Notes: a model not told the origin generated them from the letters alone. Positions 3,255 to 64,000 are shown, counted from the first letter of the stretch. The stretch is DNA of 64,000 nucleotides from an uncultured Verrucomicrobiae bacterium (GCA_963837955.1 CAWIPH010000002.1:3040001-3104000), one strand, 5' to 3'. A program made the numbers and translations.

Positions 3255-3490
3255 GACTGTTTCCTTGCTTTGGGCCGGCCCTATTGGGACGACATAGGTT
3301 CAGACAAGAACTGCCGGGCGTTGTGACAGTTTCCCGGGAACATTTTTTGGCGGACCAGCGCACCTCACGTACAGCGGTGGTGTCCTCGCAGTCATGCGTG
3401 CGCGCCAAAACGAGGACTTGCAATTAGGCTCGGACTGGTCCGTCAACGACCAAGGAATCGATGCCGGCTTCTCAGCCGTCCGGAGGACTT

Positions 3491-3702
3491 GTCCCACAGG
3501 GACGAATGAAAGTAGCCCAACACTTTAGTGCTGGGTTAGCGTTTTTTTACCCGAGACGTCCGGACGATCGACCCTTATCTGTTCTCATGAAGTTACATTA
3601 AGGCCCAAGAGGCGAACGTTTCTATCGTCCCCTACGGAACGGACGCGTCTTTTGCACCATTCCCCAGCAATAAATTGCTGGGCTACTTTCATTCGTCCCT
3701 GG
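3491..3702. repeat. REP/REPIN-like palindromic element, family A; its distal hairpin is interrupted by IS copy 1
   Basis: GTCCCACAGGGAC-GAATGAAAGTAGCCCA arm and inverted arm CTGGGCTACTTTCATTCGTCCC. Confidence 0.8.
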
Positions 3703-8625: not shown

Positions 8626-9375
8626 ATGGACATATTCCTTCCAGAACTGATCGGCACCATGCTGCTGATTATCTTCGGCGACGGAGTCGTTGCAAACGTC
8701 GTATTAAGTAAGACGAAAGGACAAAACTCCGGCTGGATTGTTATCGCGACCGGATGGGCGATGGCCGTCGTAGTCGGCGTTTATGCCGTTGCAGGATACA
8801 CCGGTGCGCACATTAACCCGGCTGTGACTATCGGCCTCCTCTCGATCGGAAAATTGACCGTCGACAAGGCGATCCTCTACATCCTTGGTCAGTTTACCGG
8901 TGCATTCATCGGCGGCGTCATCGTCTGGTTGGCGTATCACGAGCATTTTGCTGCGACCGAGGACAAAGGGCTAAAATTAGCCGTTTTCTGCACCGGCCCG
9001 GCGCTTCGTACGCCCGGTTGGAACCTTGTAACCGAAATAATTGGTACGTTCGCCCTGGTGTTTGGGGTGCTTTCAATGCTCTCCACTCGCAACCTGGTGG
9101 AGAAGACCGGTTTGGCTCCGGCTTTAGCTCCTTTTATCGTCGGACTTCTGGTCTGGGGCATCGGCCTTTCGCTCGGTGGTCCGACTGGGTATGCCATTAA
9201 CCCGGCGCGTGATCTTGGCCCGCGTATCGCTCATGCTGTACTGCCGATACCGGGGAAAGGTAGCTCCGATTGGGGTTATTCGTGGATCCCCGTCGTCGGT
9301 CCAATCATCGGTGGCATCCTGGGAGCTCTTATCTATACCTGGACTCTCGGCTCATTTCCCACTCCCACTACTTAA
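8626..9375 (+). CDS. glpF: Glycerol uptake facilitator (MIP family)
   Basis: Two NPA motifs (HINPAV, AINPARD); upstream of glpK. Confidence 0.95.
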   Translation: MDIFLPELIGTMLLIIFGDGVVANVVLSKTKGQNSGWIVIATGWAMAVVVGVYAVAGYTGAHINPAVTIGLLSIGKLTVDKAILYILGQFTGAFIGGVIVWLAYHEHFAATEDKGLKLAVFCTGPALRTPGWNLVTEIIGTFALVFGVLSMLSTRNLVEKTGLAPALAPFIVGLLVWGIGLSLGGPTGYAINPARDLGPRIAHAVLPIPGKGSSDWGYSWIPVVGPIIGGILGALIYTWTLGSFPTPTT

Positions 9376-9403
9376 ACCACAAAATTAGAACAGTCTCGAT
9401 AAT

Positions 9404-10888
9404 ATGAAGTATATACTTGCTCTTGATCAGGGCACCACTAGTTCACGCGCACTCGTCGTTGATCATGACGGGAAAGTCGTGGCGGTCGCACAAAAAGAAT
9501 TCACCCAAATCTTCCCGCAACCCGGTTGGGTTGAGCATGATCCAAAGGAGATCTGGGCAAGCCAGATTGGTGTAGCCTCCGAGGCTCTAAGTCGCGCTGG
9601 CGCCTCAGCCAAAGATGTCGCGGCGATCGGTATCACCAATCAACGCGAAACAACCATTGTTTGGGATCGCAAAACCGGTGAACCGATTCATAACGCTATC
9701 GTTTGGCAGGATCGTCGCACCGCGCCTTTCTGCGACAAGCTGCGCGCGGCTGGGCATGCAAAATTAATTCAGGAGAAGTCGGGACTGGTAATCGACGCCT
9801 ACTTCTCTGGAACAAAAGTGAACTGGCTGCTCGACAATGTTCCCGGAGCTCGCGAAAAAGCGAATCGCGGCGAGCTGGCGTTTGGAACCGTCGACTCCTG
9901 GTTGATCTGGAAACTCACGGATGGAGCTGTTCATGTCACGGACGAGAGCAACGCTTCCCGTACTCTCTTCCTCAATCTGAATACCAAGCAGTGGGACGAT
10001 GAGTTATTGGGCATTTTGAACGTTCCACGATCCGTTTTGCCGGAAGTGCGTAGTTCGAGCGAGGTCTACGGAAAAGCCAAAGGTACGCTGGAGGGGATCC
10101 CGATCGCGGGTATCGCTGGTGACCAGCAGTCCGCTCTGTTCGGGCAAGCCTGCCTGAAACCGGGTATGGCCAAGAACACCTATGGAACCGGCAGCTTCAT
10201 GCTGATTAATACCGGCACTAAACCCGTACCCTCCAAGAACAATATGTTAACCACCATTGCGTGGCGAATCGGTAAAGAGAAAACCGAATACGCACTGGAA
10301 GGTAGCGTCTTCATCACGGGTGCGGTCGTGCAATGGTTACGCGATGGGCTCAAGATCATCCGTACGTCAGCCGAAGTGGAAGAGTTGGCCGGATCAGTTC
10401 CCGATAACGGCGGCGTCTACTTGGTTCCGGCGTTTGTTGGATTGGGAGCTCCGCATTGGGATGCGTACGCACGAGGCACAATCGTTGGTTTGACCCGTGG
10501 TTCGACCGCGGCTCACATTGCACGTGCTGCCTTGGAGGGTATAGCCTACCAGGTGGCCGATGTTCTGTTTGCCATGGAAGCGGACTCGGGGGTAAAGCTC
10601 GCGGAACTCCGCGTCGATGGTGGCGCTGCCGGCAATAACCTCCTAATGCAATTCCAGGCAGATATTCTAGGAATTCCGGTTGTGCGCACCGCCAACCCCG
10701 AGGCGACCGCGTTCGGCTCTGTGTATCTCGCCGGATTGGCCGTAGGCTTCTATAAATCGACCGACGATATTGTTGCCCAATGGGCATCAGATCGCACGTT
10801 CCAGCCCAAGATGTCAGCGGATCAGCGACAGAAATTGCAAGCCGAATGGAAGAAGGCTCTAGGGCGCGCCAAGGGCTGGCTCAGTTAG
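9404..10888 (+). CDS. glpK: Glycerol kinase
   Basis: [37 protein letters not shown]. Confidence 0.97.
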
Positions 10889-10892
10889 ATTC

Positions 10893-12461
10893 GTGAACAG
10901 GGAGGTCGCTATACAGGCAATCTCGGACCGCTCCCAGGTCTGGGATTGCCTCGTAATCGGGGGCGGTGCCACAGGGCTGGGCACTGCTCTCGAAGCTGCG
11001 TCGCGTGGTTATCAGGTCTTATTGGTCGAGAGACACGATTTCGCCAAAGGCACGTCTAGTCGATCGACCAAACTCGTTCACGGAGGCGTTCGCTACCTCG
11101 AACAGGGGAACATCGGACTCGTGCGCGGAGCGTTGCATGAACGCGGCCTACTAATGCAGAACGCAGCCCATCTCGCTCATCCACTCCAGTTCATTATCCC
11201 AGCCTACCGATATTGGGAGCTGCCGTTCTATGGCGTCGGGCTAAAAGTTTATGACGCGCTTGCTGGCGCTCTTTCGCTGGGAAAATCGCGCGTCCTCAGC
11301 AGAAAAAAAGTTGTCTCCCAGTTGCCAAACGTCGAAGGAGCCGGACTGAAAGGCGGGATATCTTATTTCGATGGTCAGTTCGACGATTCTCGATTAGCAA
11401 TTTCCCTTCTCCGCACCATCCAGGATCAAGGTGGGTTTGTAGCAAATTACACCGAGGCGGTATCGCTGACCAAGGAGAGCGGCAAAATTTGTGGGGCGGT
11501 GATCCGCGACACCGAAACAGGCCAAGAGCACTCCGTTCGAGCGAAAGTGATCATCAATGCGACGGGGATTTTTTCTGATGCTATTCGAGATTTGGATGAC
11601 CCGCAAGCGGTCGACATCATTGCAGTCGCACAAGGCTCCCACCTCGTTCTTCCGGAGAAATTTCTTAAGAGTAAGTCGGCCTTAATGGTACCCAAGACCT
11701 CAGATGGTCGCGTTCTCTTCGCGATTCCATGGCACGACCGACTCGTCGTCGGAACGACCGATTTCGGCGTGCCAAAGCCGGAGGAAGAGCCATGGATCCA
11801 ACCGCATGAAGTCGACTTCATCCTTTCCGAAGCTGCTAAGTACCTGGCCGAAGATCCGACTGAAAGCGACGTACTAGCATGCTACACCGGGCTTCGTCCA
11901 TTGGTGAAGCACGCTGGCAGTAAGAGTACGGCCGCGCTATCTCGCGATCACACTGTACTTGTCTCTGAGTCCGGTCTGGTGACGATTACTGGTGGTAAAT
12001 GGACTACCTATCGTCACATGGGTGAGGATTGTTTGAACCACGCCGAAGAAGTTGCAGGTTTCGAACACAGACCATCCAAGACCGCCGATCTGCGTCTCCA
12101 CGGCAACTCGGCTGCTTCTGAGATCTTCGCTGCACCGGAGCATCTTGCCGTGTACGGAACGGATCGCAAAAGTATCGAGCAGATGGCCAAGGCAGACGCG
12201 AAAGAGGGCGACAGGCTACACAGTCGTTTGCCCTATTTAGTCGCCGAGGCAAACTGGGCGATCGACCACGAAATGGCTCGAACGATTGAAGACGTACTGT
12301 CGCGCCGGACTCGAGCGCTTCTGCTCGATTCTAAGGCTGCCGTGGAGGCGGCGCCTCGGGTGGCTCGGCTCTTGGCGGAAAAATTGGTACGCGATGCCGC
12401 TTGGGAAGCCAAACAAGTTCAAGAATTTTCCGAGCTAGCAAAGCACTATTCACTCAACTGA
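10893..12461 (+). CDS. glpD: FAD-dependent glycerol-3-phosphate dehydrogenase
   Basis: GGGATG, GTSSRSTKLVHGGVRYL, TGGKWTTYR. Confidence 0.95.
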   Translation: MNREVAIQAISDRSQVWDCLVIGGGATGLGTALEAASRGYQVLLVERHDFAKGTSSRSTKLVHGGVRYLEQGNIGLVRGALHERGLLMQNAAHLAHPLQFIIPAYRYWELPFYGVGLKVYDALAGALSLGKSRVLSRKKVVSQLPNVEGAGLKGGISYFDGQFDDSRLAISLLRTIQDQGGFVANYTEAVSLTKESGKICGAVIRDTETGQEHSVRAKVIINATGIFSDAIRDLDDPQAVDIIAVAQGSHLVLPEKFLKSKSALMVPKTSDGRVLFAIPWHDRLVVGTTDFGVPKPEEEPWIQPHEVDFILSEAAKYLAEDPTESDVLACYTGLRPLVKHAGSKSTAALSRDHTVLVSESGLVTITGGKWTTYRHMGEDCLNHAEEVAGFEHRPSKTADLRLHGNSAASEIFAAPEHLAVYGTDRKSIEQMAKADAKEGDRLHSRLPYLVAEANWAIDHEMARTIEDVLSRRTRALLLDSKAAVEAAPRVARLLAEKLVRDAAWEAKQVQEFSELAKHYSLN

Positions 12462-32894: not shown

Positions 32895-33230
32895 CTTCAG
32901 CGGCGAAGCCGCGACTCAGGATAGCCTAGCCTGCAGGGCTAGGAATAGGCATATTTAAGATGGGCCAGCGCTGAAAGCGCGGCTCAATTGAAATAGCAGC
33001 GATACCGGCCTTTTGACGATGGTCGTACAAAGATATGACGCTCGCGGATTCGGTGTTTGCCACGCGCCTTCAGCGCTAGGACCGCTCTTTTGATTTTGTT
33101 CCTAGGGCTTCGCCCTCTAGGCTATCTTGAAACGCGGCTTCGCCGCTGAAGACCCGCGCTCCTCAATTTTGATCAAGCGAAGTCCGAAACCCTACAGGCT
33201 AGGCTATCCTGAATCACGGCTTCGCCGCTC
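32895..33230. repeat. REP-like palindromic element, family B (three arms)
   Basis: CTTCAGCGGCGAAGCCGCG..GATAGCCTAG with inverted CTAGGCTATC..CGGCTTCGCCGCT twice. Confidence 0.8.
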
Positions 33231-56107: not shown

Positions 56108-56348
56108 GTCGCGAGAAACGGCGTGACCAAGTCGCGAACCATTCCTCCTATCGAGGGCCAGGGGTTAATACTCCTGGCCTTCTCATTTTTTAATCGTCCT
56201 CTCGTCCTCGAAATACTGTGCGATTGCAACGAACGATTGTTTGACGAATTTTTTCGGCGCGCTGCGGCCGGTTTATTCCAGCTGGATCGATTCGGTTAGC
56301 GGACCAGATTTGAAATAGACGCCGTCAAAATATGAGCGGGCTCCGCGC
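56108..56348. repeat. Diverged direct repeat of 56796-57030
   Basis: Shared ATTCCTCCTATCGAGGGCCAGGG..CTCCTGGCCTTCTCATTTTTAA and GATTTGAAATAGACGCCGTCAAAATATG blocks. Confidence 0.85.
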
Positions 56349-56460
56349 CGTTCGACAATGGAGTGAGCCGACTTTAGTTTTTTTCGTTCCATAAATTTGC
56401 GGAAAGTGGATAGCGCGAGCAGCAACTTATTGGCTAGGGTCCTTCCCTTAACTCAGCAGC

Positions 56461-56688: not shown

Positions 56689-56954
56689 TCTCATTAACAA
56701 TGGCGCTCACTCCGGCCGAAACGAGCGTGCCTTCCGATGGTATAGAACGCATAGACTCGCACTTCCTGCGGAAGAATAAATCGTGCATCGCGATTGTCGC
56801 CGAGAAGCGGCGTTAACAAGTCGCGAATCATTCCTCCTATCGAGGGCCAGGGTTATACTCCTGGCCTTCTCATTTTTAAATCGTCCTCGAATACTGTGCG
56901 GTCTGCCACGAACGATTGTTTAACGAATTTTCTCAGCGCGATACGCCAGCCAGT

Positions 56955-58055
56955 TTATTCCAGCTCGATCGGTTTGGTCAGCGGGCCGGATTTGAAATAG
57001 ACGCCGTCAAAATATGCGCGGGCCCCGCGCAGATAGGTGTCATTGCGAGCTTTGATTTCGACGCGCCGATCATCCAAGAAGCTAAAACTGATTTCTGCCG
57101 GCGGCTGGCCTTCTAAGGGGTCGGGATCCCGATAACTGCCGCTTCTACCCTTCAAAATGATGCGCCCGCTTACGTCGCCAACATGGAGGGTCGGGCCGCG
57201 AACCACGTTCAAACTGAATTTGATGCCTTTGCTGTCTTTTTCCAAATCCAACTCCCCTCCATACTCGTCATTGTACACAGCGCTAATACCCGCGGGTAAA
57301 CTATCGTCGAGCAAGCTTCGGATAAACTTGATTCGGGACATGGTCAGGTCTCGAAGGCTCTCCAGCCGAGCGACCTCTTTTGGCCGAGACTCAGTGTTCT
57401 CGGCAATTTCGCCGCTGTGGTCGGCAAAATCGTCCCGATACTGGATCCAAGCTCCCTCACGCTTCTTCAGATCAGCAAAAGAGCCGGCCGTTAGCTTTTT
57501 CTTGGCTTGCCCATAGATCTCGTTCAGCCAGCTGTCTGCCTCGTCGTAACGCCGTTGCGCTCGTTGCTGCAGTTCTTCATTGGACAGCTTTCGATAAGTA
57601 CCGCTGAGGTCATAGCTTTTCTTTCGCTGGTCGGTCAGTCCAGACGCTTTCACTTCCAGTTGCTGACTGTCGAGATCGCCTTCAATCGCGATTTTGGTAT
57701 TGCTCTTCTGATCCGGCTGTTCTTCCATTCGATAAACGCTCCCATCCAACTTCAGCGTACCGCCGAAGTAAAAATCTTCGTCGGGCGACGCATCGGCATA
57801 ACGGGTAAAGCTAAAATCAGAGCTCGCGCCGGCGGAACCAGGCGGATCAATCGTGAGCTCCGTCTGAGAGTCGCGCGCAAAGGTAGCTGCCTCCAACTTA
57901 TCGACCAAACAAGTGGCGAGAAGCAGCGGCGTGAGGATGAAGGTGCAGACGGAGAACAATCTGAACAATGGGCTCAGTTTCCGGAGCCGGGCATGAAACA
58001 CAGGACTTAAACAAATAAGCACTGCGCCAGTATAGCGATCTGATCGACTGACCAA
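56955..58055 (-). CDS. Exported protein with an LprI (DUF1311)-like domain
   Basis: ADSWLNEIY..LKKREGAWIQYRD..LTMSRI helical motif; start uncertain. Confidence 0.7.
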   Translation of the reverse strand: MVSRSDRYTGAVLICLSPVFHARLRKLSPLFRLFSVCTFILTPLLLATCLVDKLEAATFARDSQTELTIDPPGSAGASSDFSFTRYADASPDEDFYFGGTLKLDGSVYRMEEQPDQKSNTKIAIEGDLDSQQLEVKASGLTDQRKKSYDLSGTYRKLSNEELQQRAQRRYDEADSWLNEIYGQAKKKLTAGSFADLKKREGAWIQYRDDFADHSGEIAENTESRPKEVARLESLRDLTMSRIKFIRSLLDDSLPAGISAVYNDEYGGELDLEKDSKGIKFSLNVVRGPTLHVGDVSGRIILKGRSGSYRDPDPLEGQPPAEISFSFLDDRRVEIKARNDTYLRGARAYFDGVYFKSGPLTKPIELE

Positions 58056-59341: not shown

Positions 59342-59372
59342 TTGCATATATCGATGAATGGCGATATATAAG
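59342..59372 (+). promoter_or_regulatory. ArsR-type operator overlapping a promoter
   Basis: Perfect IR ATATATCG-N8-CGATATAT at 59346-59369, overlapping TTGCAT-17-TATATA just before the GTG start. Confidence 0.7.
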
Positions 59373-59376
59373 ACCT

Positions 59377-59757
59377 GTGATCGAGCTTCTCGGCATTGCT
59401 AAAGTGCTTGGCGATCCAACTCGCGTTCGCGTTGTAGCCGTCTTGCGGCACGGAGAGCTTTGCGTGTGCGAGCTCGTGGACGCTTTAGGCATTAGCCAGT
59501 CTTCGCTGTCCAGTCATTTACAAATTTGTCGTCAGGCAGGAGTGCTGACCACGCGAAAGGAAAGTCGTTGGATTTACTACTCGCTCTCGACCCGCTACTC
59601 ACAGCTGATTAAGTGCATCTTCACCGAGTTACAGCTTGGCAGCGACGAACAATTACGCCGAGACGCAAAGCGGCTCAAAAAGAGGCTGCAGCTGCGGGAA
59701 GGAGGCCGATGCGTCGTAGGATTCGGTCAACCGGAACTGGCAGATGTCCTCGACTAA
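59377..59757 (+). CDS. ArsR/SmtB metalloregulator with ELCVCEL motif
   Basis: LGDPTRVR, ELCVCEL, SQSSLSSHL, WIYYSL; extra C-terminal Cys. Confidence 0.93.
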   Translation: MIELLGIAKVLGDPTRVRVVAVLRHGELCVCELVDALGISQSSLSSHLQICRQAGVLTTRKESRWIYYSLSTRYSQLIKCIFTELQLGSDEQLRRDAKRLKKRLQLREGGRCVVGFGQPELADVLD

Positions 59758-60982
59758 GATAGTTGTGCCAGAGCGTGCGGCTCCCGCTCTCCATGAAATC
59801 GAGCGGGGAATGCTGCTTCCTAAGTGTCGCAAGTGCGGTTGCATGAAGGAAGCCTTGGACGCCGCCAGGCGCACCTTTCGGAACGCAGAGGAACCGGAAA
59901 TCCGCGGTCTTCTTCCAACGATCGAAGGGCATGAGACCGCGATGGAGCCGATCGCTTATGATTGCATTGGCTGCAAAAAGTGTTGGGGTGCTGATGCAAT
60001 TATTCAGCTGGCCAATCGTTTTGAGCAAGTCGCACTGAGCGAATGTTCTAACGATGGCAGCGACGGTGGTACCAAGCGTGAGCACATATCCACTACCACC
60101 AATGGGCCGCATGAGTGTTCTTGGCCACCTCATCCAGGTGAGTACATCGTTGGCAATCCCGCAGGCTCAATTGCGATCTGCACCCTCTCTAATAGGGAGC
60201 TGCCACAGAAGCTTATTGCTGTGGCAGGACCCGACCTAGCTATTGCTGGCCGATGCGACACGGAAAACATAGGTATTGAGAAAGTGGTACTCAATGTGTT
60301 GGCAAACTCTCGGATTCGTTGGCTCATTCTTTGTGGAGTCGAGGCACCGGGACATCGGGCCGCAGATGCTTTCCTACGATTGAAGGAGCGAGGCGTTGAT
60401 CCGAACATGCGAGTCCTGGAATCGGCTTCGTGGCGACCGATACTGAAAAACTTGACTTTGTTCGACGTGGCCAGATTTCGGGAACAGATCGAACTGGTAA
60501 ATTTGATTGGAGTAACAGCTGTCAGCAAAATCATCGAAGCTGCCAGCGAAGTTGCCAAGAAGCCCGCCCCGACACTCAGTCTCCAGACACCGGACAGCTC
60601 CAATCAAATTGCATCTCGGGTTAAACGGTTAAAGGCTGCTGCCCCGAAAACCTTGCATCTCGACAAGGCCGGATTTTTTGTTCTTCTCCCCCAAGCTGCG
60701 ACCGGTGTGATTGTGTGTGAGCACTACGAGAATAGTGGCCGCCTGGCGCACGTGATCGAAGGATCTCAGGCCGCGCTAATCGCCGCGACGGTAATAGAGC
60801 GCGGACTGTTAACGCAGCTCGATCACGCAGCTTATCTCGGCCGTGAGTTGGCGAAAGCAGAAATTGCACTGAAGACTGGCTCGCATTACGAACAAGATGC
60901 AGCCTTGGGCCTCCTGCCTTCGAAAAACAGTCAGCGTACTGAACGGTGCGAGGATTTGGACTGTTCTTGCCAAGAACCATAG
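59744..60982 (+). CDS. Cys-rich N-domain + MtrA-like corrinoid domain + DUF4346-like domain
   Basis: CRKCGC and CIGCKKC; WPP.PGEY.VG, AICTL, TENIGIEKVV.N..AN..IR.LILCG.E..GH; LDKAGFF..LDHAAYLGRELAKAE..YEQD. Confidence 0.85.
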   Translation: MSSTKIVVPERAAPALHEIERGMLLPKCRKCGCMKEALDAARRTFRNAEEPEIRGLLPTIEGHETAMEPIAYDCIGCKKCWGADAIIQLANRFEQVALSECSNDGSDGGTKREHISTTTNGPHECSWPPHPGEYIVGNPAGSIAICTLSNRELPQKLIAVAGPDLAIAGRCDTENIGIEKVVLNVLANSRIRWLILCGVEAPGHRAADAFLRLKERGVDPNMRVLESASWRPILKNLTLFDVARFREQIELVNLIGVTAVSKIIEAASEVAKKPAPTLSLQTPDSSNQIASRVKRLKAAAPKTLHLDKAGFFVLLPQAATGVIVCEHYENSGRLAHVIEGSQAALIAATVIERGLLTQLDHAAYLGRELAKAEIALKTGSHYEQDAALGLLPSKNSQRTERCEDLDCSCQEP

Positions 60983-60997
60983 CCTCCACCCCACGCC

Positions 60998-61399
60998 ATG
61001 AAGAAAGCAATCATCACACTGGTTACGACCGCAGCGAGCTTTCTGGCTCCCTGCGTTTATTCTCAACAAGCGAACGACTCAACGGCTGGAGTTGGTCGTC
61101 ATCCGACGACAGTTAATGATCTAGCGTCTGATCCATCCACTTATTTAGGGCAAGTTTCGGTAGTTGGCGTCGTGGCGGCCATTAATAGTGGTCAAGGCTT
61201 TACTATCGTTGATAAGCGTGAATATGCAGCTTGTGGTCTTTCTTGTTTTAGCGAACCTGATACTCGAAAGATCCCGGTACGTTGGAACGGAGCTCCTCCG
61301 AAACTTGAGCAAACGGTTCGTATAACCGGAGTCCTCGAAAAATCGGATCGCGGGCTGGTCTTTTCTGCCCAGAACGTCTCGGAGGCTGCTAAGGAGTGA
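60998..61399 (+). CDS. Exported OB-fold-like protein with CxxxC
   Basis: Signal peptide; TVNDL..P..Y.GQVSV.GVV, ACGLSC, VRITGVL. Confidence 0.75.
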   Translation: MKKAIITLVTTAASFLAPCVYSQQANDSTAGVGRHPTTVNDLASDPSTYLGQVSVVGVVAAINSGQGFTIVDKREYAACGLSCFSEPDTRKIPVRWNGAPPKLEQTVRITGVLEKSDRGLVFSAQNVSEAAKE

Positions 61400-61902
61400 A
61401 AAGCCAGCAACAAGAAAGCATTCCGCATCTCAACCGGCTATTGGGGACAGCAGCCTTCGTCGCGGTCTTCGTTGGTCACGTACTTTATCTACGCTACCTG
61501 ACGAGCCCTTCGCAAAAGGATTGGGCGGACAATTTCAATCCTTGGGCCAATTTCTGGCAAAGCTATCTGTTCAGCCAAGACTATTTCGTAAGTTTTTCTT
61601 ATGCGCTGAGTGCCAGCTTTGCTGTGTGGGCTACCGCACGTTTTTTGTACTTCCGCCGACAGGCAGCGGCCGTCGGAGCGCTTGGTGGGGTTAGCCTCGT
61701 CGCGTTGCTTCCGGCAGCAGGATGCTTTCTGGTCGGTTGCTGCGGCTCGCCGATGCTACCGATCTATATTAGTCTTTTCGGCTCGAAAGCTGCTGGAATA
61801 GGCAAGCCGCTCATGGCCTTACTAACTCTAGCCTCGATTGGCGTGGGTTACCTTTACCTCCGGAGACGATCAGCGTGCAACTGCACTAATCCGGCCGGTT
61901 AG
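61396..61902 (+). CDS. Membrane protein with CxxxGCC and C-terminal CxC
   Basis: About 4 TMs, AGCFLVGCCGSP, ACNC; GTGA overlap with the previous stop. Confidence 0.75.
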   Translation: MKSQQQESIPHLNRLLGTAAFVAVFVGHVLYLRYLTSPSQKDWADNFNPWANFWQSYLFSQDYFVSFSYALSASFAVWATARFLYFRRQAAAVGALGGVSLVALLPAAGCFLVGCCGSPMLPIYISLFGSKAAGIGKPLMALLTLASIGVGYLYLRRRSACNCTNPAG

Positions 61903-61946: not shown

Positions 61947-62168
61947 TCACTCAGCTGCGCAGCATGTGCGATTCTCTCCCTGCATTGGTGGACACTTCAC
62001 CGAACCGTAGGAGCAGAAGACGCAGCAATCACCCGGTTTGGGGCGTAGTAGCGTCTTACAACTGTTGCATTCGTAGAAGAATTGGCACGCGTCAGTCGGC
62101 ATCGTTTCGCGTTTAGCGAAACCGCAGACCGGGCACACGAGCACGGATTCAAGAAGAACGTTGCTCAT
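61947..62168 (-). CDS. GDCCVxC-motif small Cys-rich protein
   Basis: CPVCG, MPTDACQFFYEC, GDCCVFCSYGSVKCPP. Confidence 0.9.
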   Translation of the reverse strand: MSNVLLESVLVCPVCGFAKRETMPTDACQFFYECNSCKTLLRPKPGDCCVFCSYGSVKCPPMQGENRTCCAAE

Positions 62169-62176
62169 TACCGAAT

Positions 62177-62470
62177 TCAGTTGTGCAGAGTGGAAGGATA
62201 ACCTGCATCGGAAGTCGCTTTGCTAAGTGCAGCCGGGCTGGCTTTCTCCGGGTCAAAGGTAACACTGGCAGTTTTTTGGTCGAAATCCACCCTGGCGGTG
62301 GTCACGCCCGGCACTTTCTCGAGTGCTTTCTTAACAGTGATCGGACAAACCGCGCAGGTCATATTGTGCACGTCCAGAGTAATGGTTTGTAAGGTTCCAG
62401 CGAATAGGCTGAAAGGGAGGGCGACGCCGGCGGCGCTCAGCAGGACGAAACGGTTCATAAGCAATTTCAT
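62177..62470 (-). CDS. merP: Periplasmic mercury-binding protein
   Basis: Signal peptide, MTCAVCPITVKKAL, AGYPS. Confidence 0.92.
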   Translation of the reverse strand: MKLLMNRFVLLSAAGVALPFSLFAGTLQTITLDVHNMTCAVCPITVKKALEKVPGVTTARVDFDQKTASVTFDPEKASPAALSKATSDAGYPSTLHN

Positions 62471-62850
62471 AGCGAATAAAATAGAGGGGCGATCCAGGGT
62501 ACGGCGATCAGACCAAAAACTAGAACCGTAACGATCCAGAACGCTAAGCGCTGGCGTTTCAACGTGCGCGGATTGGCACAGGCCGATCCGGGTAGACAGA
62601 TTCGAGGTGCCAAATAGAGACTATAAAACGCGAAGGCAACAAACAGCAGCGTTAGTCCGATGAAAATTGGCCGATAAGGTTCGAGCGCAGTTAGAGAGCT
62701 GATCCAGGCCCCGCTTACCCCGAGCGTAAGCAAAACCAGCGGACCGAGGCAGCATAGTGATGCTCCAAGTGCCGCAAATATCCCAGCCACCAGGAAGGCG
62801 TAACCGCTTCGGGTAGCAGACTTCTTCAGTTCAGAAACTGATGGTTTCAT
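62467..62850 (-). CDS. merT: Mercuric ion transporter
   Basis: GASLCCLGPLVLL, LEPYRPIF, C.PG.AC. Confidence 0.92.
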   Translation of the reverse strand: MKPSVSELKKSATRSGYAFLVAGIFAALGASLCCLGPLVLLTLGVSGAWISSLTALEPYRPIFIGLTLLFVAFAFYSLYLAPRICLPGSACANPRTLKRQRLAFWIVTVLVFGLIAVPWIAPLFYSL

Positions 62851-63606
62851 TCAGCTTTGAGCAGGAGATTTTATCGCGCAGCAGTCTGGCGTAGCTGTTT
62901 TAGTTTTCGCTCCATCGTCGTCGTCGACTTGCGGGCGAATACCCTTTGCGAAGGCTTCCTGCAAGGCAACGACCCCCCTTTCGTCGAGACTCTCATGTGC
63001 GACTACCGACAGCTCTTCGGCGATCTGCTCTTTCTTACATCCTGGATCTGAATCGTTAAGGTTGCCAATGAATCGGCGCTCGAAAACGTTCGCCAAGCCG
63101 GTCTCCAAGGCTTTGGCTTTTTCTTCCGGCAACGCGATCTTCGTCTGAATCCGGCGAACCAGTCTTGCGGCAATAGTCCGGGCCTCCAGCTTACTGAGGC
63201 TGTCTACTTCAGCGCCGCGGTACCAGGCATTGCGGGAAACGAAACTCTGTAGTTCGGTCTCACGACCTTCGCCGTCCAATTCCCGAGCCGTTGCCCCATT
63301 CTTTTCCACGACGGATTGAACAGCTTTGTTCCGCGACTCTCGACTGGATCCCTCACTCCCGACAACGGCTAACACTGTTCCCGAGCCGTTCAGCCAGGCC
63401 TCCATGATGATGGGCTCACCCTCCAATTCCAGCAAAATTGGCTTGGAACGGCTGCCGCAACCGATCGCCGGCGCTGCCTCACATCTCAACGGCACTTCGA
63501 ATAGACTGATGCGGTCTGCCTCGACCGCGATTTTGGTCCCTTCGCCGAAAACCGACGAGACGCCCAGCAAACTTACCAGCGCCGTTGTTACTATCGTTTG
63601 TTTCAT
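62851..63606 (-). CDS. Exported protein with Cys motifs; first gene of the mer-type operon
   Basis: Signal peptide from ATG 63606, VPLRCEAAPAIGCG, C-terminal DCC. Confidence 0.75.
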   Translation of the reverse strand: MKQTIVTTALVSLLGVSSVFGEGTKIAVEADRISLFEVPLRCEAAPAIGCGSRSKPILLELEGEPIIMEAWLNGSGTVLAVVGSEGSSRESRNKAVQSVVEKNGATARELDGEGRETELQSFVSRNAWYRGAEVDSLSKLEARTIAARLVRRIQTKIALPEEKAKALETGLANVFERRFIGNLNDSDPGCKKEQIAEELSVVAHESLDERGVVALQEAFAKGIRPQVDDDDGAKTKTATPDCCAIKSPAQS

Positions 63607-63628
63607 AGGATGAATTTGTCGATGACCC

Positions 63629-63660
63629 ATGCTACGCTCCGTACTCGGGTACGGTGTCAA
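63629..63660 (-). promoter_or_regulatory. mer operator/promoter
   Basis: Minus strand TTGACA-CCGTAC-CCGA-GTACGG-AGCG-TAGCAT: mer dyad in a 20-bp spacer. Confidence 0.9.
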
Positions 63661-64000
63661 CGGCTATTTGATTCAGTGAGCGATTCGATGACCGGACACG
63701 GCTGATAGCCTTTACGTTTTGCGCATTGTTCGAGAGTCTTAGTCAGGACTGACTCGATCCGTTGAAGCTGGCCGAGTTTTTCCTGAACCAAGTTCAGCTT
63801 TTCCGCCGCAAGTTTTTGAACCTGCTCGCAATCGGCACTCGAGAGCTCCAGCAGCGCGCGGATATCGTCAAGCGAGAATCCTAGCTGCTGAGCACGACGG
63901 ATGAAACGCACTCTTTGCAAATCTTCAGCGCCGTAGGAGCGTGTCCCTCCATAAGGCTTCTGCGGAAGCTCGAGCAGCCCGATCCGCTGATAGTATCGGA
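63657..64000 (-). CDS. merR: Hg(II)-type MerR regulator, 5' end outside the window
   Basis: IRYYQRIGLL..RVRFIRRAQQLGFSL; three Cys (ADC, QC, CPVI) in the Hg-MerR pattern. Confidence 0.9.
   Translation of the reverse strand, partial: RYYQRIGLLELPQKPYGGTRSYGAEDLQRVRFIRRAQQLGFSLDDIRALLELSSADCEQVQKLAAEKLNLVQEKLGQLQRIESVLTKTLEQCAKRKGYQPCPVIESLTESNSR

Follow-up and report, generated by a model that had tools for sequence, protein, structure and literature searches.

What might a corrinoid protein of the methanogen type be doing in a bacterial operon that opens with the gene of an ArsR-family metalloregulator? The question is posed by one end of a 64,000-nucleotide stretch of DNA from an uncultured Verrucomicrobiae bacterium (GCA_963837955.1 CAWIPH010000002.1:3040001-3104000), referred to below as the window and numbered from its first letter. 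Here, a palindrome precedes a compact four-gene operon on the + strand (59346-61902) encoding the regulator, a 412-aa three-domain protein (MtrAfus, below also the enzyme) and two envelope proteins, p133 and p168. The answer argued for is that these genes form a self-contained, metal(loid)-induced cassette of a widespread and uncharacterised kind, a general model to which we give an even chance.

The cassette and its MtrA-type domain

The cassette consists of the following features:

59346..59369, no strand: candidate ArsR operator, a perfect 8-bp inverted repeat (ATATATCG-N8-CGATATAT)
59377..59757, + strand: ArsR/SmtB-family metalloregulator of 126 aa (PF01022, NF033788)
59744..60982, + strand: MtrAfus, putative 412-aa three-domain cobamide-type enzyme (PF04208, PF14251, AlphaFold2 model)
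59744..60043, + strand: N-domain of the enzyme, residues 1-100, helical, with six invariant cysteines
60119..60565, + strand: MtrA-type corrinoid-binding Rossmann domain, residues 126-274 (PF04208, PDB profile match, Foldseek)
60659..60898, + strand: PterinBD-DUF4346 domain, residues 306-385 (PF14251)
60941..60982, + strand: flexible C-terminal Cys tail of the enzyme (C402x4C407xC409, pLDDT below 60)
60998..61399, + strand: p133, exported protein with a signal peptide and the Cys motif CGLSC
61396..61902, + strand: p168, membrane protein with about four transmembrane (TM) helices, the motif GCFLxGCCGSP and the tail SACNC

The genes are closely packed. The ATG of the enzyme lies inside arsR, giving an overlap of 14 nt, and the start of p168 overlaps the stop of p133 by 4 nt. 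A preliminary description of this DNA, made from the sequence alone, had listed an operator palindrome, an ArsR with the motif ELCVCEL, an overlapping 412-aa gene and two coupled envelope genes with Cys motifs; all of these were recovered, with the operator role of the palindrome a candidate one. As the same regulator-enzyme-partner order recurs in many phyla, the arrangement is far beyond chance.

The preliminary description had further assigned the central domain of the enzyme to MtrA and placed the histidine of a GH motif at 60353-60355, and both assignments hold. PF04208 matches residues 126-274 at 1e-35 (123.4 bits against a gathering score of 25), and the family profile, compared with the PDB, retrieves 5LAA and 5L8X, both experimental structures of MtrA, at E 1e-54 with an identity of 34-38%. 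The AlphaFold2 model of the 412-aa enzyme, built on a 33-sequence alignment, has a mean pLDDT of 86.6 and shows three folded parts, connected by disordered stretches (99-123 and 283-287), and a flexible tail. Searched with Foldseek, the model matches 5L8X, 5LAA and 9QTR at E 6e-13 with TM scores of 0.81-0.85, the rmsd to 9qtr_A being 1.7 over 152 columns. The accessible text of a structural study of MtrA gives His84, hydrogen-bonded to Glu54, as the lower cobalt ligand (PMC4915002). These two residues align to H204 and E174 of the enzyme, which are invariant in 33 family sequences sharing 29-83% identity with the window protein; H204 is encoded by the CAT codon at 60353-60355. Judged by profiles and the predicted structure, the central part is a true MtrA-fold corrinoid domain, and the enzyme is predicted to bind a cobamide in the His-on form.

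The MtrA domain was found once in the whole 5.6-Mb genome. Consistent with the earlier statement that the window has no other mtr genes, the cassette genes match no Mtr subunit, mtrB-H not having been searched by family. Relatives carry the public label 'tetrahydromethanopterin S-methyltransferase subunit A', and NCBIfam has a model, NF002128, that spans all three domains over 390 positions; the architecture is already catalogued, under an ill-fitting name. The window protein misses the NCBIfam equivalog cut-offs, with 116.5 against 249.15 bits for TIGR01111 and 304.8 against 568 bits for NF002128. Furthermore, the model contains no TM helix: its C-terminus is made up of DUF4346 and the Cys tail, with no helix after residue 378. 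An identity as subunit A of the Mtr complex was rejected on the equivalog scores, the missing membrane helix and the partners p133 and p168, which match no family. HgcA was likewise rejected, as neither Pfam nor NCBIfam gave a match beyond the MtrA and DUF4346 types and the predicted structure has no TM helix; the same family matches agree with the earlier view that the protein is neither HgcA nor ArsM.

Cysteine-bearing modules and membrane partners

The N-domain carries two Cys groups, C28xxC31xC33 and C74xxC77xxC80, as expected from the CxxCxC..CxxCxxC pattern first noted, and all six residues are invariant in alignments of 33 and 23 sequences. No consistent Pfam match was obtained across the 23 members, two of which gave weak Fer4-type matches. 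In fold searches with the N-domain, Foldseek (best E 2.1) and VIA (best Z 6.0) retrieved nothing but helical bundles of a generic kind, which are no evidence for a new fold, the ESM Atlas offered nothing usable for it, and the domain is without a paralogue in the genome.

Variation at these cysteines was followed in a neighbourhood survey of the best 80 loci, in which the window proteins and seeds from annotated neighbours were compared with all open reading frames (ORFs) of each locus. An in-frame TGA occupies the C74 column in six of the 80 loci (L009, L012, L016, L044, L068 and L074) and the C33 column in one (L077), and in five of the six C74-column loci a hairpin, CUGCUGGUCAGCAG, lies about 17 nt downstream of the TGA. 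The enzyme gene of the window has Cys, not TGA, at these columns. The TGA-split relatives likely, though this is not proven, contain selenocysteine (Sec) and are probably unannotated selenoproteins. A TGA is also present in the linker of L025. The available text of a 2026 review lists forms of HgcA, HgcB, ArsM, UxxU metal-binding proteins, GDCCVxC and MduS among prokaryotic selenoproteins and links most of the recently found transport-type selenoproteins to Hg/As resistance, in which Sec may serve as a metal ligand; the word MtrA is absent from its main text (PMC13188914).

The third folded part was described beforehand as DUF4346-like, and PF14251 (PterinBD-DUF4346) matches residues 306-385 at 4.2e-21 (75.9 bits against a gathering score of 29.6). 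The domain consists of three strands and two helices and has the invariant residues D307, E326, H361, Y364, E368 and Q384. A pterin-binding role is hinted at by the Pfam name. A second DUF4346 protein, or another pterin-binding partner for methyl loading, was sought in the genome and rejected: DUF4346 is unique there, and of the three Pterin_bind ORFs two have the size of FolP and the third is MetH-like. The enzyme ends in the CxxxxCxC arrangement already seen in the preliminary description, C402x4C407xC409, in a segment with pLDDT below 60. Tails with at least two cysteines occur in 25 of the 69 assessable loci, the other 11 of the 80 having been left out as their ORF showed no HAAYLG anchor, and they are commoner with an envelope module (16 of 29 loci) than in its absence (9 of 40; Fisher p 0.01).

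Neither p133 nor p168 belongs to a Pfam or NCBIfam family. p133 has a signal peptide, possibly that of a lipoprotein, and the near-invariant residues E75 and C79 (CGLSC in the window). Its profile gives a weak match to the OB-fold protein RPA14 in the PDB (E 0.005), which makes an OB fold possible. The same family profile finds two weak paralogues in the genome, at G000:C2:3747251-3747916 (+; E 9e-10) and G000:C2:188234-188866 (-; E 3e-6). Among the 80 loci, p133 is present in 15-16 and p168 in 19-21, within 3 kb of the enzyme gene in 15 and 19, respectively.

p168 has invariant cysteines at C110, C115 and C116 in the motif GCFLxGCCGSP, which lies inside a hydrophobic stretch and in which C115-C116-G-S-P119 is invariant; its basic, CxC-bearing tail (SACNC) is predicted to be cytoplasmic. 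A PDB profile search with p168 found nothing, and the ESM Atlas returned unnamed clusters only. Aligned with MerT by hhalign (probability 56%), its CCxxP falls in register with MerT C33-C34, and the two Cys tails are paired through a similar SAC.NP. p168 is MerT-like in the two adjacent cysteines that precede xxP within a TM helix and in the Cys pair of its predicted cytoplasmic tail. The MerT Pfam model PF02411 matches two of 18 p168 members, at E >= 0.43, and leaves the window protein unmatched; membership in MerT was rejected for this reason, and p168 is proposed to work like MerT, not to be MerT. A distant relationship of p168 to DsbD/CcdA was also rejected (hhalign probability 1.2%), as was one of p133 to the thioredoxin-like partner introduced below (14.3%).

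The preliminary description had noted the two envelope genes as coupled, and their conservation across loci and occasional fusion to the enzyme support a real partnership. Among 150 representatives listed, five are p168-enzyme fusions (four with p168 N-terminal, one with p168 C-terminal), four are enzyme-p133 fusions with p133 C-terminal, and two join the enzyme to a C-terminal thioredoxin-like partner (P0132, P0139, P0143, P0155, P0153, P0171, P0156, P0134, P0196, P0164 and P0180). At the DNA level, p168 and the enzyme form a single open frame at L081:5404-7032 and L082:5380-7092, and the enzyme and p133 do so at L041:5872-7521. Where p168 and the enzyme are fused, the N-domain follows the Cys tail of p168 directly; where p133 is joined to the enzyme, what was once a signal peptide would become a membrane anchor between a cytoplasmic enzyme and an exported domain. 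These natural fusions argue that the enzyme works together with p168, p133 or the thioredoxin-like partner at the membrane.

The thioredoxin-like partner belongs to an alternative pair, each member of which occurs in 15 loci: a membrane-anchored thioredoxin-fold protein and a DsbD/CcdA-family protein, the latter (DsbD_TM) with NPCC....P in TM1 and hence a vicinal Cys pair. Such pairing raises the question whether the enzyme is a cytoplasmic electron donor that passes electrons via p168 or CcdA to the exported thioredoxin-like protein or p133, keeping envelope cysteines reduced under metal stress, with the cobamide and Cys/Sec as redox centres. The 15 loci in which the enzyme is paired in this way, the cis-Pro motif of the thioredoxin-fold protein and the fusions that tether the enzyme to its partners speak for it, as does U/CxxC, which the available text of the selenoprotein review calls typical of redox-active selenoproteins (PMC13188914). 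However, the thioredoxin-like partner has a single Cys or CxC instead of CxxC, the DsbD partners carry an unusual vicinal CC, and p168 and p133 share no profile similarity with the DsbD-family and thioredoxin-like partners at the hhalign probabilities given above. The cobamide would also be left without explanation, as CcdA normally draws its electrons from ordinary thioredoxin. Such an electron relay is accordingly rated improbable, and the handling of a metal(loid) is kept as the preferred reading.

Control, distribution and metal context

The inverted repeat ATATATCG-N8-CGATATAT ends 7 nt upstream of the arsR start. An identical palindrome stands at the same place in the ortholog locus L003 (81% identical), and L004, a 63% relative, has a different one. 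The regulator of the window matches HTH_5 (PF01022) at 5e-14 and NF033788 with 89.4 bits (cut-off 55). Its ELCVCEL motif contains C29 and C31, and a C-terminal extension contains C111. In the R773-type triad ELCVCDLC (Cys32, Cys34 and Cys37) there is a third cysteine that the window ArsR, reading ELCVCELVD, does not have, and PRK10141 scores 63.9 bits against 97; a match to BigR is weak. According to the accessible text of a preprint, two cysteines are enough for As(III) binding in R773 ArsR (bioRxiv 10.1101/2022.10.17.512643).

The window subtype, with ELCVCEL and a C-terminal Gx(R/K)C, is common to eight other loci. Three ArsR subtypes are found among the loci, namely the window type, a short CadC-like type with ELCVCD and a type with ELCV...DPCV...GLCL, which implies that the enzyme has been placed repeatedly under ArsR-family control. 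The proposal in the preliminary description that As(III) or Sb(III) is the effector is not established: two R773-type cysteines are present, but the third is absent, the subtypes differ, the neighbouring pumps are mostly of Zn/Cd/Pb/Hg type, and no arsenic genes of the ArsC, ArsB or Acr3 families appear in the neighbour scans described below.

The enzyme family is large. Among 8000 candidates scored, 1076 clusters at 90% identity match the enzyme; at 50% identity, 1303 representatives match at E <= 1e-3, 152 of these at E <= 1e-30. In contigs taken from one genome per species, 597 of 607 pattern matches encode a relative, so that at least 597 species genomes carry one. Verrucomicrobiota, Acidobacteriota, Planctomycetota, Myxococcota, Nitrospirota, Bacteroidota, Bacillota, Pseudomonadota, one archaeon and others are represented in the 80 best loci. 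Six genomes carry the gene in a set of 31 related ones to which the window's own belongs, one relative having two copies, and a quick gene tree (one of the 80 loci left out) does not track taxonomy. This patchy distribution and the tree together fit an accessory, horizontally moving gene.

The N-domain is present in 71 of the 80 loci, the remaining nine encoding MtrA-DUF4346 only. In 42 of the 80 an ArsR gene is encountered within 3 kb, and in 37 it stands directly upstream on the same strand; all 37 are N-domain loci (37/71 against 0/9 for the N-domain-less ones). Partner or metal genes were found within 3 kb in 55 of the 71 N-domain loci, compared with two of the nine others. P-type ATPases occur within this distance in 11 loci, and all 12 adjacent ones score higher with Zn/Cd/Pb/Hg models than with the copper model. 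RND pumps occur in seven loci and CDF pumps in four, and SAM methyltransferases in 11, of which five are ArsM-like (one above the NCBIfam cut-off) and four MduS-like. MerR, MerT/P and GDCCVxC proteins are within 3 kb in two loci each. ArsC, ArsB and Acr3 were not seen in the Pfam scans of neighbours, which covered L003-L060 within 2.5-3 kb and skipped ORFs shorter than 70-95 aa. The survey of homolog neighbourhoods, suggested beforehand as a check on the metal association, shows that the family is strongly associated with ArsR regulators and with genes of metal resistance, mer genes included.

The loci with and without the N-domain also bear on a reading in which the protein serves one-carbon or cobamide housekeeping, as a corrinoid carrier for methyl transfer or B12 handling with no metal involved and with ArsR-family control by another signal, such as persulfide or redox state. 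Seven of the nine N-domain-less loci have no metal gene nearby, and some ArsR-family members sense non-metals, although the match to BigR is weak. Yet it is the N-domain form that is specifically tied to ArsR and metal genes, and the Cys tails, candidate Sec, CC-motif membrane partners and resistance-island settings point to soft metals. We regard a housekeeping role as very improbable, the least likely of the alternatives, and hold to a metal(loid) substrate.

Which metal(loid) this would be in the present genome is approached through the genes next to the cassette, which the preliminary description had missed:

61947..62168, - strand: GDCCVxC-domain protein, last gene of a convergent mer operon (NF041374 2.5e-31, 107.7 bits against 40)
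62177..62470, - strand: MerP (TIGR02052 100.9 bits against 92.55; HMA 1.1e-17)
62467..62850, - strand: MerT (PF02411 2e-34; NF010314 126.5 bits, below the cut-off of 150)
62851..63660, - strand: p269, Cys-bearing exported protein between merR and merT (no family; one N-terminal hydrophobic stretch)
63657..64000, - strand: MerR, running off the window (TIGR02051 123.3 bits against 150.85 on the truncated part; MerR-DNA-bind 7e-17)

This merR-p269-merT-merP-GDCCVxC operon converges on the cassette and ends 45 bp from p168; beyond the window it continues to L002:5657-6049, and MerR is seen there in its full 130-aa form. p269 (269 aa) contains CEAAPAIGC and a C-terminal DCC, has no family match and may be a new mer accessory protein. 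A CadD-like membrane protein is encoded next to merR (L002:6132-6743, -), and a fragment of a CusA/CzcA-type heavy-metal RND pump lies further on (L002:17029-18000, -). The end of the window sits in a metal-resistance island. Elsewhere in the window, a direct repeat of about 240 nt (56112-56348 and 56801-57030; three segments 86-92% identical, about 685 nt apart) spans the 3' end of an LprI-domain gene (56955-58055, -) and an upstream partial copy of the C-terminus of that gene (56273-56425, -), and the small RNA Acido-Lenti-1 is matched at 3490-3535 (-; 42 bits) and 32899-32943 (-; 38.4 bits), with a gathering score of 37.

The genome of this soil bacterium, 95% complete in two contigs, has no MerA at the cut-off, the best match reaching 347.6 of 454.45 bits. 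MerA needs a C-terminal Cys pair, and none of the six best MerA paralogues in the genome ends in one. No merB was found in the genome either, but the same search matched no control genome, so this absence is weakly shown. With Hg(II) uptake genes present and the usual reductase missing, the cassette is a candidate for handling imported mercury, and, in view of the adjoining operon, mercury is here no less likely than arsenic to be the substrate.

In its strongest form, this argument would make the cassette mercury-specific, a replacement of or complement to MerA/MerB: Hg(II) or methylmercury would be imported via p133/p168, here also via MerT/MerP, and reduced or demethylated by a cob(I)amide to volatile Hg(0). 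Besides the adjoining operon in a genome in which merA and merB were not found, several relatives fit. In L031 (Chryseobacterium aquaticum; 8884-11545) a distance of 1.4 kb separates the cassette from a complete ArsR-MerTP-MerP-MerA operon, the MerA scoring 514.7 bits against a cut-off of 454; a MerB-like gene adjoins the cassette in L037; and MerR, GDCCVxC or MerT/P genes are near it in L015, L022, L052 and L082. The CCxxP and SAC.NP likeness of p168 to MerT and the C-terminal Cys tail of the enzyme, which resembles that of MerA, point the same way. However, mer genes are near only about seven of 81 loci and are missing from the nearest relatives, the merA next door in L031 indicates that the enzyme is not simply a MerA substitute, no cobamide enzyme is known to reduce Hg(II), and the evidence for a missing merB is limited as stated above. 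Exclusive dedication to mercury is unlikely, though it ranks above the other specific alternatives.

Dedication to arsenic or antimony, by contrast, would make the enzyme a B12-dependent arsenite methyltransferase acting beside or instead of the SAM-dependent ArsM, with p168 exporting the methylated product. The three-Cys motifs suit As(III), ArsM-like methyltransferases recur near the five loci mentioned, and one ArsP_1 permease and one DGC protein are encoded in the vicinity of two loci. The ELCVC motif supplies two of the three R773 As(III) ligands, enough for binding according to the available preprint text (bioRxiv 10.1101/2022.10.17.512643). Against this stand the lack of ArsC, ArsB and Acr3 in the scanned neighbourhoods, the Zn/Cd/Pb/Hg type of the adjacent pumps, the many associated ArsRs that are CadC-like or of the third subtype, and the window itself, which holds mer and not ars genes. 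This dedication appears less likely still than that to mercury. For the substrate in this genome, as distinct from the specialisation of the whole family, a mercury species comes first at somewhat short of an even chance, cadmium, lead or another metal follows as an unlikely choice, and arsenic or antimony is a shade less likely again.

A proposed relay and its relation to known systems

The preferred reading is that the cassette carries out a cobamide-dependent transformation of a soft metal(loid) as a relay from sensor to enzyme, for which the chances seem roughly balanced. ArsR would sit on ATATATCG-N8-CGATATAT until a thiophilic metal(loid) binds its cysteines. p133 and p168 would then form a thiol-lined path across the inner membrane, in which p168 would act in the fashion of MerT through its vicinal Cys pair in a TM helix and its cytoplasmic Cys tail. 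In the cytoplasm, the metal(loid) would be held by the flexible Cys tail of the enzyme and by its six-Cys N-domain, with Sec apparently at one position in some relatives, and would thereby come to lie beside the His-on cobamide of the MtrA domain. The cobamide would change the chemical form of the metal(loid), the likeliest single step being a methyl transfer, and DUF4346 would serve the other half-reaction in the modular style of MetH. The direction could be either way, as methylation of As(III) or Hg(II) or as demethylation of an organometal. Alternatively, a cob(I)amide might act as reductant, which includes the demethylation of methylmercury to Hg(0). We infer metal binding by the cysteines, transport and any chemistry from these sequence features.

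Within the general model, methyl transfer is favoured, as somewhat the better bet, because the known MtrA-type corrinoids carry methyl groups, the layout is like that of MetH and ArsM-like genes recur nearby; to our knowledge, every known MtrA-type corrinoid is a methyl carrier. A two-electron reduction by Co(I) is, within the same model, the less likely but serious second choice. The cobalamin-dependent methylation or demethylation route put forward in the preliminary description is not established by these results, as the cassette contains no recognisable methyl-donor enzyme.

Besides that missing donor, a number of observations weigh against the proposed relay. The six cysteines of the N-domain could simply hold an Fe-S or Zn centre, and the hairpins after the TGA codons are not significant alone (fold z +0.09 to -1.56). 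DUF4346 has no demonstrated activity that we know of, and the genome offers no second DUF4346 protein. The likeness of p168 to MerT is at the level of motifs, as the hhalign and Pfam values above indicate. In the survey, 34 of the 71 N-domain loci have no ArsR directly upstream, and in 16 of the 71 neither a partner nor a metal gene is found within 3 kb. The neighbouring mer operon is not a constant feature: in L003 and L105, the closest relatives, the four cassette genes occur and mer genes do not, and in L031 merA stands next door. Finally, CbiC is absent from the genome, so the organism probably imports its cobamide; on the supporting side, four ORFs with a B12-binding domain, including a MetH-like ORF of 1245 aa, suggest that it probably uses B12.

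Compared with MtrA and the cytoplasmic MtrA homologues of methanogens (PF04208; 5LAA, 5L8X, 8Q3V, 9QTQ), the enzyme shares the Rossmann-type fold and the conserved His/Glu dyad. It differs in lacking a C-terminal membrane helix, in a cassette that encodes no partner subunits of Mtr, in adding the six-Cys N-domain, DUF4346 and Cys tail, and in being a bacterial, ArsR-controlled protein in metal-resistance settings. Bacterial MtrA homologues are mentioned, with no function assigned, in the accessible text of Wagner et al. 2016 (PMC4915002).

In outline, the cassette resembles HgcAB in its corrinoid protein, Cys-rich module, membrane link, ArsR control and candidate Sec variants. HgcAB has a Cys-rich partner module with terminal cysteines and a membrane attachment. 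The two systems are not homologous, however: the cobalt ligand of HgcA is a Cys, in contrast to the His of the enzyme, the N-domain is not a 2[4Fe-4S] ferredoxin, and the cassette is also found in an aerobic isolate, Chryseobacterium. For hgcAB, an ArsR-like regulator upstream (bioRxiv 10.1101/2022.10.17.512643) and selenocysteine variants (PMC13188914) are reported in the available parts of these sources.

The logic of mer operons is shared as well, with a regulator, an exported Cys protein, a vicinal-Cys membrane protein with a cytoplasmic Cys pair and an enzyme with a flexible Cys tail. Here, the regulator is of ArsR and not MerR type, p133 does not have the HMA fold, p168 is not a Pfam MerT, and a corrinoid protein takes the place of the flavin disulfide reductase. 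ArsM and its selenoprotein forms offer a further parallel in a Cys/Sec triad that holds the metalloid beside the methyl donor, and in ArsR control, but the putative methyl carrier of the cassette is a cobamide instead of SAM and the folds are unrelated. In MetH-type enzymes a cobalamin module is flanked by substrate modules on one polypeptide, one of which uses Cys ligands to activate the acceptor; the enzyme follows this plan with another cobalamin fold, and its N-domain and DUF4346 are unrelated to the homocysteine- and folate-binding barrels.

Literature searches, in which subscription journals were thinly covered, found no account of the family or DUF4346, and none of an MtrA homologue that takes part in metal resistance. 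No paper was found that combines MtrA with DUF4346 or 'tetrahydromethanopterin S-methyltransferase subunit A' with mercury; the combination with arsR gave nothing relevant, and MJ0301 gave none. The system appears to represent a new kind of metal handling, with a chemistry that is a proposal.

The transformation of soft metals has so far been a matter of flavin (MerA), protonolysis (MerB), SAM (ArsM) and the corrinoid pair HgcAB, which is restricted to anaerobes. If the proposed relay is true, it would add a new enzyme class to metal resistance, of B12 type, controlled by a metal sensor, provided with its own thiol-lined membrane path and sometimes a selenoprotein. Bacterial MtrA homologues, DUF4346 and the unannotated N-domain, p133 and p168 families would thereby each gain their first function, and the automatic label 'tetrahydromethanopterin S-methyltransferase subunit A' would be corrected. 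With at least 597 species genomes encoding a relative, the family could matter for the environmental speciation of mercury and arsenic, which is modelled now on gene counts of hgcAB, merAB and arsM. The boldest form of the proposal, to which we assign a low likelihood, is that soil and water bacteria of many phyla, aerobic and anaerobic, add methyl groups to mercury or arsenic or remove them by a B12-dependent route independent of hgcAB, merB and arsM; if true, this route would account at the gene level, where a basis is now missing, for the turnover of methylmercury in the absence of hgcAB or merB.

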